From Candidatus Magasanikiibacteriota bacterium (GTDB taxonomy: Bacteria; Patescibacteriota; Patescibacteriia; Magasanikbacterales; GWA2-37-8): a DNA stretch of 34,763 nt. The stretch lies in the NCBI GenBank assembly GCA_036170335.1, contig JAVHOZ010000065.1, forward strand, positions 524 to 35,286. Direction: 5' to 3'. A model generated the notes under the pieces. That model did no database searches. It was not told where the DNA came from and was given only the letters and a program-made list of their open reading frames with translations. Of this stretch, positions 5,007 through 13,608 are shown one piece after another. Position 1 is the first letter of the stretch, and each line of letters opens with the position of its first letter. The translations under genes were made by a program, and so were the position numbers.

Positions 5007-6071
5007 ATGCAACATATTGTACAGGTGATACCGGCATTGGGATACGGGGGAGCCGAACGGTTGGTGGTGGATCTTGTTAATCATAGTGATAGCGCGAAAT
5101 ATCGATTTACGGTAATTGTTTTTTTTGATAATTTGCCGCTGAAGTCGTTGATTGAAAAAAAGGCCAATGTTATTTTGATAGAAAAAAAATCCAAATTTGA
5201 TTTTAGTTTTTTAAATAGATTGGAGAAAAAATTAGTGGAGTTGAAACCGGATCTTGTGCATGGACATCTTTTTGCCGGAGATTTTTGGGGACGACTCGCG
5301 GCCCATCGGTTGAGTGTGCCATATTTGAGTACTGAACACAATCTGAATTACGACGACGGTTGGTTGAAAAATTTTGTGAAAAAAATGGTGTCCAGTGAGC
5401 AAGATTATTTTGTGGCTTGTTCTTTGACGGTGTCGGATTATATGCGTACGGTTTATAATATTAAAAATGAAATCAGAGTAATATCCAACGGTATTGAATT
5501 GAATCGTTTTACCAATTTAACACCAATCACTTGGCACAACCCGCTGCGGTTTTTGATGATTGGCCGGTTGACAAAACAAAAAGGTCAGTTGGTAGCTTTG
5601 TCGGCCTTGAAGAAAATTACCAATCATCATTGGCATTTGACAATAGTAGGGTCGGGGATTGAGAAAAATAATTTGCTGGATTTTGTTAGAAAAAATAATT
5701 TACAAGATAGGGTGGAATTTGTGGAACCTTTGGTTCGGGTGGAAAAATATTTTGGTGAAGCGGATGTTTTTTTGATGCCCTCTGTTTGGGAGGGTTTGGG
5801 TGTGGTAGTGATGGAAGCAATGGCTAGTGAGCGAGTGGTGTTGGTGTCCAAAACCGGTGGACTGACGGAGCTGATTCAAGATCAAGAAACCGGTTATTTT
5901 TCAAAACCACAAAATATTTTGGATTGGGAGAAAAAAATAAAATATATTATTGAAAATAAAAACGAAGCACATCGATTGGCCAAAAATGCCAAAATTTATG
6001 CCAAAGAAAATTTTGGTGTTAAAAAAATGATCGAAAAATATGATAAGGTTTATTCTATAATTATACAATGA
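5007..6071 (+). CDS. Glycosyltransferase, GT4 (GT-B fold) family
   Basis: N-terminal GYGGAERLV motif and C-terminal E-x7-E region (PSVWEGLGVVVMEAMASERVVLVSKTGGLTELI). Confidence 0.85.
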   Translation: MQHIVQVIPALGYGGAERLVVDLVNHSDSAKYRFTVIVFFDNLPLKSLIEKKANVILIEKKSKFDFSFLNRLEKKLVELKPDLVHGHLFAGDFWGRLAAHRLSVPYLSTEHNLNYDDGWLKNFVKKMVSSEQDYFVACSLTVSDYMRTVYNIKNEIRVISNGIELNRFTNLTPITWHNPLRFLMIGRLTKQKGQLVALSALKKITNHHWHLTIVGSGIEKNNLLDFVRKNNLQDRVEFVEPLVRVEKYFGEADVFLMPSVWEGLGVVVMEAMASERVVLVSKTGGLTELIQDQETGYFSKPQNILDWEKKIKYIIENKNEAHRLAKNAKIYAKENFGVKKMIEKYDKVYSIIIQ

Positions 6072-6094
6072 TTCCCGTTTTCGCGGGAATGACA
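6070..6094. repeat. Single unit of the GTCATTCCCG...CGGGAATC palindromic repeat family
   Basis: gattcccgttttcgcgggaatgaca, with a 7-bp stem attcccg/cgggaat. It overlaps the last base and stop codon (6070-6071) of the GT4 gene and fills most of the spacer before the radical SAM gene. Confidence 0.85.
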
Positions 6095-7104: not shown

Positions 7105-7166
7105 TGTCATTCCCGTGTAAACGGGAATCCAGAATTAATTAGATTCCCGTTTACACGGGAGTGACA
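7105..7166. repeat. Inverted pair of GTCATTCCCG...CGGGAATC units
   Basis: tgtcattcccgtgtaaacgggaatc (7105-7129), 12-nt spacer, gattcccgtttacacgggagtgaca (7142-7166). It fills the gap between the radical SAM stop and the GT4 start. Confidence 0.85.
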
Positions 7167-8372: not shown

Positions 8373-10351
8373 TGAAAAATTTTTTTTACAGATCAATCAC
8401 CGCAATTTTTATTGGCCTATTTGTGTCGGTATTTTGTTATTTTAGTTATTTTGCCAAGTCGGCGCCGATTTTGGCCAATTATTATCTGCGTTGGGATTTG
8501 CCGTCAAGTGAAATTGAAAATTTGGCCAAATGGGATTTGTTAATTTTGGATATGGAAAATCAGGTAACCAATCCGGAAAAAATAAAAAAAATTCGTCAGT
8601 TGCATCCCGGGATAAAAATATTGGCCTATGTGACTTCGCAAGAAATAAAAAATGGACAGCTGGGCACGATGCGCGCCAAATTAAAAAGTGGTATTAGTGA
8701 CAGTTGGTATTTACGTCGCAGTAATGGTGAAAAAATTTCTTTTTGGCCTGGCACAACGATGCTCAATCCGACAGATGTGTGTCCGATAAGTAATGGCCAA
8801 CGCTGGAATGATTATCTGGCCAGTTTTATGAACAACGAAGTTCTTTCTACTGGTTTGTGGGATGGGATTTTTTATGATAATGCTTGGGGTGATCTGACTT
8901 GGTTTTCCGGCAACAATGTGGATCTGAATTTGGATGGTCAACCGGATAGCGATATCAACAAACATTGGAATGCCGGTATGACAAATTTATTCAACATGAC
9001 GCGTGATTTATCGGGTGCGAATTATGTGATTGTCGGCAATGCGATGACACGTGAGTATGCCAATAATCTCAACGGTATGATGTATGAAAATTTTCAAAAC
9101 CATGTGTGGCGCGATGTAATGTATGCGATAAAAACAGAGATGAATGGCAATTTGCGGCCGCGAATTATTATCATCAATGGCAATACCAATAATACCGGCA
9201 ACAAACAGAGTTACCAAAATATGCGCTATGGTTTGGGGAGCGCACTAGTTGGTGGGGCGTATTTTTCTTATGATGATGGTGATCAAAGTCATAGCCAAAC
9301 TTGGTGGTACGATGAGTATAATGTGAAGCTGGGAAATCCGGTGGGTGAAGCTAGTACTATGGATGGTAATACTTTGATTACTGAAGATGTCTGGCGTCGT
9401 GATTATGAAAACGGTTTGGCCTTGGTAAATTCTACTGGCAATGAGCAGACAGTAAATTTGGGCAATGATTATGAAAAAATTATCGGAAAGCAAGATCCGG
9501 CGATAAATGATGGATCGATAGTCGACAGAGTAAAAATAAATTCGCGCGATGGTTTGGTGTTGCGCAAAGTAGTACAAAATCTTTTTGGTGCGTCTTTTAA
9601 AAATGGTAGCTTGGTGAGATTTTATGATGTGCGTGGCCAGAGAGTGCGTAATGGTTTTTTTGCTTTTGTACCGGATGTGGCTGGTGGTGCGCGTGTGTTT
9701 GTGGGTGATTTGAATGGTGATGGTAGTAATGAGCGAGTAGTCGGTGGGGCTGGGCGTTTTGAAATTTTTAATTCGGCCAATTTGCATTGGTTTGATAGTT
9801 ATCCCTTTGGTGGAAATAATTCCAAAGAATTGCGTTTTAGTGTAGGCAAAAGTTTGGCTGGTGAAGTGAAAATTTTGCTAACACCGACGGTTGGCAATCG
9901 GGCGGTTTTGTATGATTATCATGGTGAAGTTATCAAAGAAGATTTTTTGCCATTTGGTTCAAAATATAATGCTGGTTTTTATGGGGCGCTGGGAAATTTT
10001 AGTGGTGGCTCGAATCTGGAAGTGGCGATTGGTTCGGGTGGGGTGAGAGTGGGGGAGGTGTTGGTATTTGATGCGGATTTACAAAAAATAAAATATCGGT
10101 TTTTTCCATTTGATAAAAAATATTTTGGTAGAATAAAAGTAGCAGCCGGAGATGTCGATGGCGATGGCAAGGCGGAGATAATCACGATGGGAAAATTTGG
10201 AGCAAAAAATGTGGTGCGAATTTTTGACAATAAAGGTAAAAAATTGTCGGAGTTTTTGGTTAATAGTCAGTTTGGTGGGGCAGATTTGGGTATTGGTGCT
10301 ACTGATGTGAATTTTGATGGGAAGGATGAAATAGTGATGGATGGGGGATAG
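8372..10351 (+). CDS. Membrane-anchored or secreted protein with C-terminal FG-GAP/VCBS-like repeats; the N-terminal half may be a glycoside-hydrolase-like TIM-barrel domain
   Basis: N-terminal hydrophobic segment (ITAIFIGLFVSVFCYFSYFA). Repeated Ca-binding-like motifs GDLNGDGSNERVVG, GDVDGDGKAEIIT and TDVNFDGKDEIVM. The N-terminal domain call is weak and rests on recollection of GHL-type families only. ATG overlaps the upstream stop (TAATG). Confidence 0.6.
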   Translation: MKNFFYRSITAIFIGLFVSVFCYFSYFAKSAPILANYYLRWDLPSSEIENLAKWDLLILDMENQVTNPEKIKKIRQLHPGIKILAYVTSQEIKNGQLGTMRAKLKSGISDSWYLRRSNGEKISFWPGTTMLNPTDVCPISNGQRWNDYLASFMNNEVLSTGLWDGIFYDNAWGDLTWFSGNNVDLNLDGQPDSDINKHWNAGMTNLFNMTRDLSGANYVIVGNAMTREYANNLNGMMYENFQNHVWRDVMYAIKTEMNGNLRPRIIIINGNTNNTGNKQSYQNMRYGLGSALVGGAYFSYDDGDQSHSQTWWYDEYNVKLGNPVGEASTMDGNTLITEDVWRRDYENGLALVNSTGNEQTVNLGNDYEKIIGKQDPAINDGSIVDRVKINSRDGLVLRKVVQNLFGASFKNGSLVRFYDVRGQRVRNGFFAFVPDVAGGARVFVGDLNGDGSNERVVGGAGRFEIFNSANLHWFDSYPFGGNNSKELRFSVGKSLAGEVKILLTPTVGNRAVLYDYHGEVIKEDFLPFGSKYNAGFYGALGNFSGGSNLEVAIGSGGVRVGEVLVFDADLQKIKYRFFPFDKKYFGRIKVAAGDVDGDGKAEIITMGKFGAKNVVRIFDNKGKKLSEFLVNSQFGGADLGIGATDVNFDGKDEIVMDGG

Positions 10352-10411
10352 ACCTATTACCTTGAATTTTTATAGTCATTTTTTTGGCTAAAATTAGCCC
10401 ATGCTAGACCA

Positions 10412-10440
10412 TTGACAAATGGTCGTTTTTGTGCTATGCT
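10412..10440 (+). promoter_or_regulatory. Putative promoter with extended -10, upstream of GC-rich gene 2
   Basis: TTGACA (10412-10417), 17-nt spacer ending in TGC, TATGCT (10435-10440). This implies a leader of about 300 nt before the ATG at 10750. Confidence 0.5.
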
Positions 10441-10503
10441 ATGTAGTTATTCTGTGCAAGAATAATGACTGAATTTAGCTTTTTTCAAATCAAACGAATA
10501 CTT

Positions 10504-10612
10504 ACCTGCGTGGAAGTAAACACATGTCATTCCTAATATTGTCATTCCAGTGAAGCTTGTCCTCACGAAAGTGGTGAACGGGAATCTAAGATGTTTTTAC
10601 TCCCATGCAGGT
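10504..10612. mobile_element. MITE-like 109-bp element: 22-bp terminal inverted repeats enclosing degenerate GTCATTCC...GGGAATC units
   Basis: acctgcgtggaagtaaacacat (10504-10525) versus the reverse complement of 10591-10612 (acctgcatgggagtaaaaacat): 19 of 22 matches. The interior carries gtcattcc twice and cgggaatc once. Confidence 0.6.
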
Positions 10613-10749
10613 TCTAGCATTGGGAGGTGGTTGCCTAGTTGGTAACAGTCCTTCCCAGTGTTGGGTAAAATTCGTCAGTGTTAGCGCAACTTTTTCGTCT
10701 TGTCAGAGGTAACCAACCCATCTGCACAGGACATGCTCTGGAGGATACC

Positions 10750-11325
10750 ATGACGGAGAATACCTACACCGGTCCGAACATCGATTCGGAGAAGAAGTTT
10801 TTTGGCGCCGGCGCTCCGATGAGTGGCGGACTGTTCGTCGCGATTGGCTTGGCGGTGGTGGCGGTGGTTTTGGCCATCGTCGGCATCAACATGGCCAACA
10901 ACGCCGACACCCACGCCACTTCGATCGAGAAGTCGGTCAGCAAGCTGGGCGATGCGCATGACGCGCTCGCCAAGTACGTCCATGAGGAGCACGACTGGGT
11001 CGTCGCTCGGCTCGCGACGAAAGCCACGGCGACGACGGTCGACGAAGCGATCGCGACTCTGACGGCGAAGGCCGACAAGAGCGTGGTCGACAAGTTGACC
11101 GAGGAGTTGAAGACGAAAGCGTCTAGCTCCACCGTCACGAGGCTGGCCAGCGATCTCCTGATGAAGGCTGACGCGCAAGCGGTCAAGCGGATCGCGCGGC
11201 GAGTTCAAAAGATGGACACGCGTGTCAACAATCTGGTTGACTTGAACAAGTTGATCGAGGTTGCTCCCGCTGCTCCGCCCGCAGCCAAGCCGCCGCTTCC
11301 GGCCGCGGCACCGGCTGCCAAGTAG
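10750..11325 (+). CDS. GC-rich membrane-anchored repeat protein (N-terminal TM segment, about 16-aa K-A-D-type repeats, Pro/Ala-rich C-terminal tail)
   Basis: GGAGG at 10740-10744, 5 nt before the ATG at 10750 (the track ORF starts upstream at 10678). TM segment GGLFVAIGLAVVAVVLAIVGI. Repeats LATKATATTVDEAIAT / LTAKADKSVVDKLTEE / LKTKASSSTVTRLASD / LLMKADAQAVKRIARR. Tail APAAPPAAKPPLPAAAPAAK. GC3-rich codons throughout. Confidence 0.75.
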   Translation: MTENTYTGPNIDSEKKFFGAGAPMSGGLFVAIGLAVVAVVLAIVGINMANNADTHATSIEKSVSKLGDAHDALAKYVHEEHDWVVARLATKATATTVDEAIATLTAKADKSVVDKLTEELKTKASSSTVTRLASDLLMKADAQAVKRIARRVQKMDTRVNNLVDLNKLIEVAPAAPPAAKPPLPAAAPAAK

Positions 11326-11460
11326 TCCGTCCCACGCAACGTGGGCATCGTAGTCAGTACACCATGTTTTTTGATGGTGATGACTCGATGAGGACGCAAA
11401 ATCCCCAAAAGGGTGCCTGTGACGCAAGTCACAGGCATACCGCTTAGTAAATAAAATTTG
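11326..11460 (+). other. Conserved structured 3' module (copy 1) between the stop codon and the terminator
   Basis: Hairpins cccacg-caa-cgtggg (11331-11345), caccat-gttttttg-atggtg (11360-11379) and cctgtgac-gcaa-gtcacagg (11416-11435). Invariant 25-mer aggacgcaaaatccccaaaagggtg (11391-11415). Conserved trailer acc-gcttagtaaataa. Homologous to 12420-12552. Confidence 0.7.
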
Positions 11461-11480
11461 TTTATTGAGCCGATTAAAAA

Positions 11481-11508
11481 ATCACCAAATCAATCTGGTG
11501 ATTTTTTA
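11481..11508 (+). terminator. Intrinsic terminator after GC-rich gene 2
   Basis: Stem atcacca (11481-11487) pairs with tggtgat (11496-11502), followed by a T-run and preceded by an A-run. Confidence 0.75.
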
Positions 11509-11520
11509 TTTTTTTTAAAT

Positions 11521-11545
11521 TGTCATTCCCGTGCAAACGGGAATC
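11521..11545. repeat. Single GTCATTCCCG...CGGGAATC unit
   Basis: tgtcattcccgtgcaaacgggaatc in the AT-rich spacer between the two GC-rich genes. Confidence 0.85.
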
Positions 11546-11663
11546 TTATTTTTGACAAAACACATCAATTGTGGTTTTATAGTATCCAGTGCGAATAGTG
11601 GCTAGTTTGGAATTTCCAATCGGCCAGGCTCAATTGGTCAAGTTTTTGGAGGAAAAGAGGAAC

Positions 11664-12419
11664 ATGGATACTCAACCTTTTGTTATTGGTGCTACGGCGC
11701 CTAAACCCCCGGTGTCTGATCCTGACGAAAGTCGTCATGGTCAAGTTCTCGATCTTCAAGAGATGCGTCGGCGTCTGGCGGAAAAGAAGAATCCGACTGT
11801 CAAGGATGCACTTGAAGCGTTGAGTGTTGAACGCGCTCAAACGGACCAGCTGACCATTCGGGTTGCCGATCTGGAGAACGACAAGCTCAAGGACAACAAG
11901 CACTTCGGTGCCAATGTGTCCGAGGTCGCCAAGCCGCTCATCGCTACGGCTGTTCAGACTTCATACCGGAAGATCTGGAGTGTCGCGGTTGTGGCTGGCT
12001 TGGTTCTGCTGGCTGTGGTCACGGTCGGCGTCTGGTCGCATCAGGCACTCAAGTCTCGGGTTTCACTGGTGGAGTACGGTTTGACCGCTAAGGCCGATCA
12101 GGCTCAGGTGGACAAGATCGTGTCTCAACTCACGACCAAGGCGGACAAGTCCGAGCTCAAGGCTATTGAAGCCAAGGCAGACCGCTCGGTTGTCGAACGT
12201 CTCAGCCAAGAGCTCAAGGAGAAGGACGGCGCGCACGACGCACGTCTCAACGATCTGGCCACGGATCTGATGTCCAAGGCCAATCAAGAGGAGGTTGAAA
12301 AGCTCTCCGCTCGTCTGCGCTCAACTCGCTCCAAAATTCGCTCGCTCGAACAGCGGATGAAGGAGTTCTCGACTTCGGTTCCAGCGCCGGCTCCAGCCGT
12401 TCCGCCCAAGACCATGTAG
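11664..12419 (+). CDS. GC-rich membrane-anchored repeat protein, paralog of 10750-11325 with a longer N-terminal cytoplasmic-type region
   Basis: ATG at 11664 is preceded by ggaggaaaagagg (the track start at 11589 is GTG). Central TM segment IWSVAVVAGLVLLAVVTVGVW. Repeats LTAKADQAQVDKIVSQ / LTTKADKSELKAIEA / KADRSVVERLSQE / LMSKANQEEVEKLSAR. Pro/Ala tail VPAPAPAVPPKTM. Confidence 0.75.
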   Translation: MDTQPFVIGATAPKPPVSDPDESRHGQVLDLQEMRRRLAEKKNPTVKDALEALSVERAQTDQLTIRVADLENDKLKDNKHFGANVSEVAKPLIATAVQTSYRKIWSVAVVAGLVLLAVVTVGVWSHQALKSRVSLVEYGLTAKADQAQVDKIVSQLTTKADKSELKAIEAKADRSVVERLSQELKEKDGAHDARLNDLATDLMSKANQEEVEKLSARLRSTRSKIRSLEQRMKEFSTSVPAPAPAVPPKTM

Positions 12420-12552
12420 TCCACCCATGCAATGTGGGCAATGAGATCTGTTTGCTTTGTTTTTGAAAGCGAACTACTCTAGAAGGACGCAAAATCCCCA
12501 AAAGGGTGTCCCGACTTAGTCGGGACTACCTGCTTAGTAAATAATTTTTTTG
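12420..12552 (+). other. Conserved structured 3' module (copy 2)
   Basis: Hairpins cccatg-caa-tgtggg (12424-12438), gtttgcttt-gtttttg-aaagcgaac (12450-12474) and tcccgac-tta-gtcggga (12509-12525). The identical 25-mer lies at 12484-12508. Trailer acc-tgcttagtaaataa. Confidence 0.7.
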
Positions 12553-12572
12553 TTTATTTAGTATATTAAAAA

Positions 12573-12598
12573 ATCCACCGTTGTTTGGTGGATTTTTT
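12573..12598. terminator. Bidirectional intrinsic terminator between convergent genes
   Basis: Stem atccacc (12573-12579) pairs with ggtggat (12587-12593). An A-run lies upstream and a T-run downstream. It sits between the plus-strand gene ending at 12419 and the minus-strand gene ending at 12611. Confidence 0.7.
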
Positions 12599-12610
12599 AA
12601 TTGATACAAA

Positions 12611-13537
12611 TTATTTACCGGTGATTAAACATACCACTGATCCATCAAATTTCCAATTTTGTTTTATGGCTTGTTGTAATCCAACAATTGCGAGCGCGCT
12701 ATTTGGTGATAATTTTATTTTTTCAGTTTCTTCTACTAGTTTGATTGTATTTTTTATTTGTTGGTCGTCGGCTATCCAACCAAAACCGTGACTGTTTGTT
12801 ATATCGGCGGTTACCATTTCTTTGCGGTGAGCAATGTTATCCACGATTGCGCCGGCCAGTGATGTCTTTGTCATTCCCGCAAAAGCGGGAATCTTGGTTG
12901 TGTCGACAGATTCCCGCTTTTGCGGGAATGACAATAAAAATTTTTCTGTAATCGGATGCACTGCGCTAGTTTGTACAATATGAATTTGAGGATTTAGTTT
13001 TAATTTTTTAAAAGCAGCGTGAAGTCCTTGGGCGGTAGTACCACTGGATGTTGGGATAAAAATTGCCGATAGATTTTTTATTTTATTCAATTCCAGAGCA
13101 AGTTGTTCGTATCCGGTTAGGGCAGTATCATCTATCGACTGGCGTAATATTTTGGCCTTGCCGGATTTGTCGATTTGAAAAGCTGATTGTTTTGGATTTT
13201 TTATTTTTATTAAAAATATATTTTTGGATAATATTTTTGTTAATATTTTTTCTTTGGCTTTGTCAATTTTTTCACCCACAAAAATTTGTAAAGTCAGTTT
13301 GTTTTTGTGTGTCCGATTAAATTTTTTAATATACAAACCAGCGGCCAAAGCGGCATTTCCGGAAGAAGATATTACAAAATTAGCAAGTCCTTGTTTGACA
13401 TAAAAATCTACCATCAGTGGTATAGAACGGCCTTTGTGTGACCCAAGCGGGTGTAAATCTTCTCTTTTGAAGTAAAGAGGCGCTTCCAAACCCAGTGTTT
13501 TAGCCAATTTTTGATGTTTTGTTTGAGGGGTTATCAT
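12611..13537 (-). CDS. PLP-dependent enzyme of the tryptophan-synthase-beta / threonine-synthase-like fold, carrying an in-frame repeat-derived insertion
   Basis: Lys-containing motif EDLHPLGSHKGRS (compare the S-F-K-D-R PLP-lysine motif), a Gly-rich loop FIPTSSGTTAQG and a C-terminal CLITG. The track start at 13549 is TTG; the ATG is at 13537. Residues LSFPQKRESVDTTKIPAFAGMTK are encoded by the repeat pair at 12869-12933. Confidence 0.7.
   Translation of the reverse strand: MITPQTKHQKLAKTLGLEAPLYFKREDLHPLGSHKGRSIPLMVDFYVKQGLANFVISSSGNAALAAGLYIKKFNRTHKNKLTLQIFVGEKIDKAKEKILTKILSKNIFLIKIKNPKQSAFQIDKSGKAKILRQSIDDTALTGYEQLALELNKIKNLSAIFIPTSSGTTAQGLHAAFKKLKLNPQIHIVQTSAVHPITEKFLLSFPQKRESVDTTKIPAFAGMTKTSLAGAIVDNIAHRKEMVTADITNSHGFGWIADDQQIKNTIKLVEETEKIKLSPNSALAIVGLQQAIKQNWKFDGSVVCLITGK
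12869..12933. repeat. Inverted pair of GTCATTCCCG...CGGGAATC units located inside a coding sequence
   Basis: tgtcattcccgcaaaagcgggaatc (12869-12893), 15-nt spacer, gattcccgcttttgcgggaatgaca (12909-12933). The host ORF stays open through it. Confidence 0.85.
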
Positions 13538-13608
13538 AGGTCTTGCCAAAAGTGATTATTTTTGATATACTTGTTTTTGCTTTCGTAATTTAGTTTAATT
13601 ATGCTCTT

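Follow-up and report, generated by a model that had tools for sequence, protein, structure and literature searches.

The question raised by this locus is why two adjacent GC-rich genes, here termed A and B, should each be followed immediately by a stretch of DNA which folds to the same plan. The genes lie in a stretch of 34,763 nucleotides (nt) of contig JAVHOZ010000065.1 from a Candidatus Magasanikiibacteriota bacterium (the window, meaning the whole 34.7 kb that was analysed), and their tails, both folded on the sense strand, occupy positions 11323-11515 (tail A) and 12417-12600 (tail B). Read 5′ to 3′, each tail comprises a three-way junction (helices P1 to P3), a linker, a hairpin P4, an AU hairpin P5, an invariant spacer, and an intrinsic terminator. 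The element very probably represents a new, lineage-restricted family of functional sense-strand RNA from the untranslated region at the 3′ end (3′ UTR), and its sequence is best read as that of the 3′ UTR of two monocistronic paralogous mRNAs in Magasanikbacteria-like bacteria of the candidate phyla radiation (CPR).

The three-way junction of tail A (11325-11395, + strand), as defined by the minimum free energy fold and by covariation, is closed by P1, in which GUCC (11325-11328) pairs with GGAC (11392-11395), the first of these strands opening with the G of the stop codon, UAG. Enclosed by P1 are P2 (11331-11336 with 11340-11345; cccacg-caa-cgtggg) and P3 (11346-11365 with 11374-11390, around a U-rich loop at 11366-11373; caccat-gttttttg-atggtg). 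The linker GCAAAAUCCCCAAAAG (11396-11411), which is predicted to be mostly unpaired and whose segment AAAUCCCC is predicted to be single-stranded, leads to P4 (11412-11441), a 9-bp stem with a GGU/ACC closure, a 2-nt bulge, and a GCAA loop, and thence to P5 (11442-11470), a 13-bp AU-rich helix (GCUUAGUAAAUAA / UUGUUUAUUGAGC) containing three G-U wobbles. The invariant spacer (C)GAUUAAAAAAUC, the terminator hairpin, and a U-tract complete tail A at 11471-11517, within which a terminator scan lists 11475-11508.

Tail B, also on the + strand, was assigned from its fold and from covariation in the same manner. Its junction (12419-12488) is closed by P1 (12419-12422 with 12485-12488) and contains P2 (12424-12429 with 12433-12438; cccatg-caa-tgtggg) and a two-part P3 (12443-12445 with 12477-12479, plus 12450-12458 with 12466-12474, loop 12459-12465; gtttgcttt-gtttttg-aaagcgaac). 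The linker (12489-12504) has the same letters as that of tail A, while the stem of P4 (12505-12531; GUCCCGAC / GUCGGGAC, loop UUA, GGU/ACC closure, 1-nt bulge) is unrelated in its letters to that of its counterpart. P5 (12532-12564) is followed by the spacer AUUAAAAAAUC, a terminator of the form CCACC...GGUGG, and a U-tract (12565-12600); this terminator, which is seen in the fold, was missed by the consensus terminator scan because the A/U tracts are absorbed into its stem. The strands joining the junction helices measure 0 to 5 nt, being GU, none, and A in tail A and A, CAAU, and UAGAA in tail B.

Much of this architecture had been recognized in the original prediction, in which three hairpins (P2, P3, and P4), a 25-nt block common to both tails, the bulged GGT...ACC closure, the GCTTAGTAAATAA AT hairpin, and the terminator were all correctly placed. 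Its account was incomplete in that P1, which encloses the first two hairpins, had been overlooked, and the module, given as 11326-11460, extends to 11472 at the end of the AT hairpin and to approximately 11515 when the terminator is included. The 25-nt block, AGGACGCAAAATCCCCAAAAGGGTG, occurs exactly twice in the window (11391-11415 and 12484-12508) against a chance expectation of 0. The four related copies that had been supposed to exist in the window are reduced to these two, as a covariance model run with filters off scored them at 164 and 125 bits and the next sense-strand match at 10.6 bits; a 28.4-bit match on the - strand (11440-11567) is merely the palindrome of the AT hairpin and terminator of tail A.

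Both tails fold far more stably than shuffled sequences, with energies of -66 (A) and -44 (B) kcal/mol for approximately 148 nt and z-scores of -8.0 and -4.0, respectively, on the + strand; the corresponding - strand values are weaker (-5.6 and -2.8). Because the element begins at the stop codon, a terminating ribosome must melt both P1 and P2. A CCC:GGG mini-hairpin proposed by RNAalifold attained a probability of ≤0.15 in most copies, against 0.3 to 0.9 for the competing GGU:ACC closure of P4 (partition functions), from which it follows that the motif AAAUCCC(C) is mostly single-stranded. The mini-hairpin is not favoured by the modelled ensembles; it and the GGU:ACC closure are mutually exclusive, and a switch between the two is conceivable.

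It had been argued that conserved structure with diverged stems marks a functional folded nucleic acid, a view that is strongly supported by covariation in approximately 24 copies and by evolution much slower than that of synonymous sites. The main count was based on 24 copies in a model-fitted alignment, which leans towards structure, and was repeated on a structure-blind MAFFT alignment. In the former, 89.3% of cells were paired, both-side changes were seen in 31 of the 52 pairs and in 147 cells, and covariation scored 0.372, while slid controls yielded 8 to 16 such pairs, 12 to 30 cells, and scores of 0.05 to 0.07, with none of 500 shuffles reaching the observed values. The MAFFT alignment gave 83.9% paired cells and both-side changes in 27 of the 52 pairs (90 cells, slid controls giving 18 to 27); for four of the five measures, the observed values were again reached by 0/500 shuffles. 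Changes on both sides affected 3/4 pairs of P1, 6/6 of P2, 4/6 of inner P3, and 9/13 of P4, and the terminator stems also covary. The swaps in hairpin 1 (P2), which had been described as fully compensatory on the evidence of the window pair, are one-sided changes to G-U wobbles in that pair; true double swaps do appear once other genomes are added. P1 itself changes from GUCC/GGAC to CCCC/GGGG in locus L011 and is replaced by a wholly different UAGUGU/ACACUA in L104, and outer P3 is paired in A-type tails only, B-type tails having instead a 3-bp GAG/CUC helix and longer junction strands.

Alongside these variable stems, several parts of the element are conserved in sequence. At least 90% conservation was observed among unpaired positions for the A preceding GGAC, for AAAU-CCC and the A's which follow, and for parts of the U-rich P3 loop, the linker being the most conserved unpaired stretch, with AAAUCCC and GGGU both conserved in ≥90% of copies. 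The C after P2 (11346) is conserved to the same degree (≥90%), being paired at the base of P3 in A-type tails and an unpaired junction nucleotide in B-type tails. Divergent copies retain AUCCC...GGGU around a spacer that differs in length and letters (AAAA, AUU, ACAA, UUGAAAAUA, or A). P5 is near-invariant, and its three G-U or U-G pairs are kept in 16, 22, and 21 of the 24 copies.

The P5 wobbles bear on the strand and molecule in which the element acts, since G-U pairs on the sense strand correspond to A-C mismatches on the antisense strand; coupled with the folding energies of the + strand and the constant sense orientation of all copies, this assigns the element to the RNA of the sense strand. 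The alternative of a DNA-level element, whether a folded single-stranded recombination site resembling attC or an operator for a protein where a mobile cassette ends, would account for hairpins of constant shape and variable letters at the 3′ ends of genes with a foreign-looking GC content. Set against it, in addition to the sense-strand preference just described, are the chromosomal synteny fixed across many genomes, the lack of a cassette array or of any integrase, transposase, or reverse transcriptase gene in the 34.7 kb, and the absence, on reading the module ends, of R″/R′ cores (RYYYAAC / GTTRRRY). Moreover, gene A is preceded by a promoter-like site, unlike promoterless cassettes, and viral contigs yielded no copies, the 86 loci matched there by a 15-mer of the core all being chance matches in which the covariance model found 0/86. 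Such an element is considered highly improbable, and the cassette-end recombination site entertained in the original prediction is unsupported; the other roles suggested there, those of a 3′-UTR stability or localisation element or of a protein-binding site, remain viable and constitute the preferred class.

In all, approximately 29 copies from approximately 16 metagenomic populations were recovered (24 aligned copies, those of L101, L103, L114, and L007, and a fragment, L104:1-80), each located directly after an A- or B-type gene, on the sense strand, 0 to 8 nt past the stop codon, and followed by a terminator. Through the closest homologue of protein A, a groundwater contig of 174 kb (L001) was reached, which harbors the same gene order and both tails. 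In a set of 185,579 species genomes, a two-anchor DNA pattern matched at 4 loci; metagenomes gave 7 more, of which one was a chance match. The exact-pattern matches in the species-representative set lie in metagenome-assembled genomes named Candidatus Magasanikbacteria. A protein profile of A and B retrieved 18 homologues, none of them bearing a name, and the tail was present on every contig having DNA downstream of the gene. Covariance model searches, in which true copies scored 104 to 166 bits and one divergent copy 70 bits, brought to light further copies, these being attached to the partner gene in L004, L005, L006, L104, and L113. Two contigs on which the A/B genes and their tails occur with unchanged synteny, L005 (CAZXEV010000017.1) and L007 (CAYZHG010000001.1), are titled "uncultured Gammaproteobacteria" and are probably mis-binned or mislabelled CPR contigs. 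One A-type copy, that of L006 (2587-2740, - strand), has a degenerate P1/P2 part, and a P2-like hairpin, CCUC-CUAA-GAGG, arises there from the final codons of the gene, indicating that the 5′ boundary of the element can overlap coding sequence.

Comparison of orthologues and paralogues indicates how this similarity has been maintained. Tail identity between orthologues is 0.74 to 0.96, compared to 0.47 to 0.70 at four-fold degenerate sites, and between paralogues A and B it is 0.70, compared to a protein identity of 0.32 and a four-fold identity of 0.30, the latter being that expected at random. Were the likeness of the tails a functionless remnant of a recent tandem duplication, or a product of gene conversion between them, the adjacency of the paralogues would be accounted for, as would the P4 sequences of A and B, which are unusually alike in L006 (0.76) and L013 (0.70) and hint at occasional exchange between tails. 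This reading is extremely improbable and is regarded as refuted, as the coding sequences are saturated (27 to 32% protein identity) while the tails are not, compensatory changes are abundant, and A and B tails from one genome are, across three segments, no more alike than those from different genomes (identities of 0.53/0.54, 0.44/0.46, and 0.82/0.82, respectively). The last of these comparisons also rules out general concerted evolution by gene conversion as the cause. The similarity of the tails is kept by purifying selection since an old duplication and not by recent conversion.

The failure of the original prediction to match the element to a known family was borne out by an Rfam 15 cmscan of the whole window, which returned 0 matches at the gathering threshold. 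At E ≤ 10 over 10350-12620, the best matches were RNAI (25.7 vs 47 bits), FtrB (26.1 vs 66), and BSnc120 (23.9 vs 114), each far short of its threshold and confined to the AT hairpin/terminator, and a scan for tRNA and transfer-messenger RNA found none. Some ribozymes and aptamers are likewise built from a three-way junction with conserved nucleotides and a single-stranded segment that does not vary, and a catalytic or ligand-sensing RNA, being either a new self-cleaving ribozyme or an aptamer modulating termination or read-through, was weighed. The junction strands of the alignment lack the hammerhead core (CUGANGA / GAAA), no ribozyme or riboswitch model was matched at E ≤ 10, P5 and the terminator each form a stable helix and no anti-terminator pairing is evident, and no gene lies downstream of tail B on the same strand for it to regulate; on these grounds such an RNA is deemed very improbable. 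A hidden small open reading frame (ORF), or read-through peptide, after the UAG was rejected, as 1-nt indels in the loops, such as those that separate L003 from the window, disrupt the frame between copies.

The genes to which the tails are attached are distant paralogues arranged in adjacent tandem (27% identity, E = 2e-11). Gene A (10750-11325, + strand; ORF and translation) specifies a protein of 191 amino acids (aa), which is membrane-anchored and coiled-coil with a Pro/Ala-rich C-terminus, and has a GC content of 0.62 overall and of 0.81 at third codon positions (GC3). Gene B (11664-12419, + strand; GC 0.56, GC3 0.63) specifies a 251-aa coiled-coil protein with a transmembrane segment in its middle and a conserved C-terminal ...PKTM (12405-12419 region), an ending which is common to B-type orthologues and abuts the UAG where P1 starts. 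Each of the two genes ends in UAG, as do all tail-bearing genes that were read except L004_A (UAA then G), while UAA terminates 19 of the 28 genes of the window; this preference is consistent with constraint by P1 on the G of the stop codon. Searches of proteins A and B against Pfam, NCBIfam, PHROGs, and PDB sequences produced only weak coiled-coil noise, the AlphaFold2 (AF2) model of protein B is all-helical and of low confidence (predicted local distance difference test score, 64), and the family is tiny, a set of 1.84 billion proteins containing 27 representatives at E ≤ 1e-10.

Gene A is preceded by a strong, near-consensus promoter-like site (TTGACA-17-TATGCT with TG), whose -35 box is overlapped by the palindrome GACCATTGACAAATGGTC. 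Its leader is conserved over approximately 300 nt (window 10400-10750; L001 3170-3494; L003 60-311), contains several hairpins with compensatory changes, and exists in two variants among the genomes, namely that of the window and L001 and that of L003, L102, L006, and L011. This leader is possibly a further regulatory RNA that has gone unannotated.

We propose that the tails act as a cis-acting module which protects the message and docks a factor, thereby co-regulating A and B, a reading that is tentatively preferred while falling somewhat short of an even probability. The element would act in cis on the mRNA which carries it, its stacked and stable helices shielding the 3′ end against exonucleases, while the linker, invariant and positioned between a pair of rigid helical domains, would serve as the docking site for a trans-acting factor, be it an RNA-binding protein or a G-rich RNA. 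The docked factor would set the stability and/or translation of the A and B mRNAs jointly, so that the two paralogous membrane coiled-coil proteins would be kept co-regulated. The one-to-one tie of the element to two paralogous mRNAs, its start at the stop codon, and its displayed single-stranded motif all point to a cis role shared by both messages, and the presence of one copy on each of two paralogous mRNAs is more readily reconciled with cis co-regulation than with a single trans product.

Several observations sit less comfortably with this proposal. P5 is conserved in its letters and not merely in its pairing, for which we offer no explanation. The putative promoter of gene B is a TTGACA box after tail A that was identified by sequence reading, the consensus scan having returned none, and expression of gene B may in part depend on read-through of the tail A terminator. 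The genes neighbouring A and B gave no clue to an RNA-binding protein in the ORF/Pfam analysis, the linker is equally suited to be the seed of a processed small RNA (sRNA), and a structural role, i.e., the blocking of exonucleases, appears inseparable from a docking role at the level of sequence.

The sRNA alternative envisages a trans-acting RNA derived from the 3′ UTR, set free by endonucleolytic cleavage within the linker or close to the stop codon, whose UCCCC seed would pair with G-rich or Shine-Dalgarno regions of other mRNAs at sites of the GGGGAUUU type. An unpaired C-rich motif, flanking hairpins, and an own terminator make up the typical anatomy of sRNAs such as RsaE/RoxS and RNAIII in Firmicutes, and in the tails the motif is indeed unpaired, invariant, and C-rich, the flanking hairpins are stable, and each copy has its own terminator. 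On the other hand, the GC-rich 3′ ends of the coding sequences, which vary in length, contain no AT-rich promoter-like sequence, leaving processing as the only means of release; a trans product requires neither two copies per genome nor a tie of each copy to one paralogue; and a heavily covarying three-way junction of 70 nt has no obvious role in an sRNA of the seed type. Sites complementary to the linker do not exceed chance in the 34.7-kb window. Pairing of the linker with the leaders of A or B, which would recall the UCCCC anti-Shine-Dalgarno motif of the Staphylococcus aureus icaR 3′ UTR that pairs with the Shine-Dalgarno region of the same mRNA (PMC3868564), lies at background (-11.6 to -13.0 kcal/mol in the window and L001, compared to -12.5 ± 4.1). 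An sRNA is, on balance, rated as unlikely.

A second alternative, which we regard as decidedly unlikely, dispenses with docking altogether and views the tail as a passive protector, in which the helix stack would block 3′-to-5′ exonucleases, or the junction together with P4 would block RNase J (5′ to 3′) in the way that exonuclease-resistant RNAs (xrRNAs) block Xrn1, resulting in a longer mRNA life or a stable 3′ fragment. The very high stability of the tails is in keeping with such a function, as are the structured tail (z = -7.1) of another GC-rich gene of the window, which is collagen-like, and the long, structured 5′ leader of gene A. Class 1a xrRNAs consist of a 3′-UTR three-way junction (P1 to P3), a linker, and an additional P4 (PMC8571300), a topology which the module matches, and the conserved C after P2 is a further point of agreement. 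The class is defined in addition by a long-range pseudoknot 2 (PK2), which joins the P3 loop to the strand running from P1 to P4, by PK1, by a ring threaded by the 5′ end, and by resistance to a 5′-to-3′ exonuclease. A generic roadblock, however, requires neither an invariant single-stranded segment nor an invariant P5 sequence, P3 (12 to 16 bp) is much longer than in xrRNAs, and no Rfam xrRNA model was matched even at E ≤ 10. A pseudoknot between the U-rich P3 loop and the A-rich linker could form in 81 to 84% of cells (two registers/A-tracts), but slid registers performed nearly as well or better and no covariation was supported, and the pairing may be of compositional origin only.

The resemblance to xrRNAs is best treated as a lead and not as evidence of membership. 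By analogy, the junction, linker, and P4 might form a bacterial xrRNA counterpart which stalls RNase J at the stop codon and leaves a stable non-coding 3′ fragment of approximately 190 nt displaying AAAUCCC, although this is considered quite improbable; if true, it would amount to a cellular equivalent of the subgenomic flaviviral RNA, or "sfRNA."

The neighbourhood of A and B is ordinary chromosomal. Pfam scans of 20 window ORFs detected no integrase, transposase, or reverse transcriptase, revealing instead housekeeping, cell-wall, and sugar genes, and the genes of the window (ORF and Pfam analysis) include those for O-antigen, glycosyltransferases, GHL15/FG-GAP, PALP, NUDIX, Mur ligases, MraY, penicillin-binding protein, P-type ATPase, transketolase, and MurB functions. 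A and B are flanked by the GHL15/FG-GAP gene on one side and the PALP gene on the other, a synteny kept in many genomes. GC content per 400-nt bin is approximately 0.30 to 0.42 across the window apart from three GC-rich islands (1-1000, 10800-11200, and 11600-12400), and GC3 is 0.75 in the collagen-like gene (3-839), as opposed to 0.22 to 0.46 in the other 20 genes measured. Orthologues of A and B elsewhere are likewise GC-rich (0.50 to 0.69, within loci of GC 0.36 to 0.56), and because those at the same syntenic position in other genomes share it, the GC3 anomaly is not the result of recent transfer; candidate causes are selective pressure on the structure or stability of the mRNA, biased gene conversion, and rare-codon control. 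Together with the collagen-like gene, A and B may represent a group whose mRNAs are "armoured" in composition, their GC3-recoded coding regions lying between heavily structured leaders and tails, a design in these CPR bacteria of which the module might be one part. An antisense ORF (10681-11427, - strand; 248 aa) covering gene A and part of its tail is most likely a by-product of high GC, with few stop codons, and not a gene.

The highly structured tail of the collagen-like gene (837-1135, approximately 300 nt) is unrelated to the module, its 840-1130 region having no match to the covariance model, and a hairpin loop, ACGCAAGU, is common to it and to P4. Two of its segments, 910-958 and 1067-1129, recur with 96 to 100% identity at 1929-1977 and 1976-2038, just downstream of a toxin-antitoxin-like HEPN/MNT pair (1209-1903), and it looks as if this pair had been inserted into the tail with duplication. 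A dispersed palindromic hairpin repeat, GTCATTCCCG-N6-CGGGAAT, is present in five exact-pattern copies, as opposed to 0 expected, at 6071-6093 (- strand), 7106-7128, 11522-11544, 12870-12892, and 12910-12932 (- strand), and in a degenerate copy in the leader of gene A (approximately 10537-10590). The copy at 11522-11544 is situated between the tail A terminator and gene B. The last two form a head-to-head pair (12868-12935) inside the PALP-enzyme gene (ORF 12611-13549, - strand), where they correspond to an in-frame insertion of approximately 18 aa relative to the syntenic orthologue of L001 (312 vs 294 aa, 78% identity), thus resembling Rickettsia palindromic elements, which enter coding genes in frame.

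To our knowledge, structured covarying RNA domains are rare in bacterial 3′ UTRs, and we know of almost nothing regarding post-transcriptional control in CPR bacteria (Patescibacteria), which are not culturable alone; our literature search encountered no description of a CPR 3′-UTR motif or of GC-rich gene islands in CPR genomes. The element makes up a new family of RNA whose general kind, the structured bacterial 3′-UTR element, is known and whose distribution is narrow. Being supported by covariation, conserved for longer than the proteins themselves, and equipped with a candidate recognition site, it offers a handle on the RNA-binding machinery of the CPR, and its elucidation may explain why a set of envelope-protein genes stays compositionally foreign (GC3 0.63 to 0.81, in a genome of approximately 0.3).

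Comparison with known systems places the module close to several of them without equating it to any. It shares with integron attC sites its position at the 3′ end of an ORF and, in several stems, a structure conserved beyond sequence, while attC sites lack its long invariant single- and double-stranded blocks. Repetitive extragenic palindromes (REPs) and bacterial interspersed mosaic elements (BIMEs) similarly place stable hairpins past the stop codon, where they could impede 3′ exonucleases, but REPs are short, dispersed, and present in many copies, whereas the module measures approximately 150 nt, occurs twice in 34.7 kb, and is specific to one gene family. The palindrome that is truly dispersed in the window, GTCATTCCCG...CGGGAAT, differs from the module in sequence. 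The sRNAs with C-rich seeds (RsaE/RoxS, the hairpins of RNAIII) and those derived from 3′ UTRs have in common with it an unpaired invariant UCCC(C), flanking hairpins, and a Rho-independent terminator, and differ from it in that the module shows no Rfam similarity, has an additional three-way junction, and is tied one-to-one to two paralogous genes. With the class 1a xrRNAs of flaviviruses it shares the 3′-UTR position, the P1-P3 junction followed by P4, a complementary composition of loop and linker, and the C after P2; it departs from them in a P3 that is two to three times longer, in a pairing of the PK2 type without supported covariation, and in its bacterial host, in which RNase J and not Xrn1 would be encountered. 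Like the icaR 3′ UTR, to which it bears no sequence relationship, it belongs to a long 3′ UTR of a monocistronic mRNA and combines an unpaired UCCCC with an intrinsic terminator and, as proposed here, with post-transcriptional control in cis; what sets it apart is that its motif sits within a large, covarying, multi-helix fold which has been kept across paralogues.

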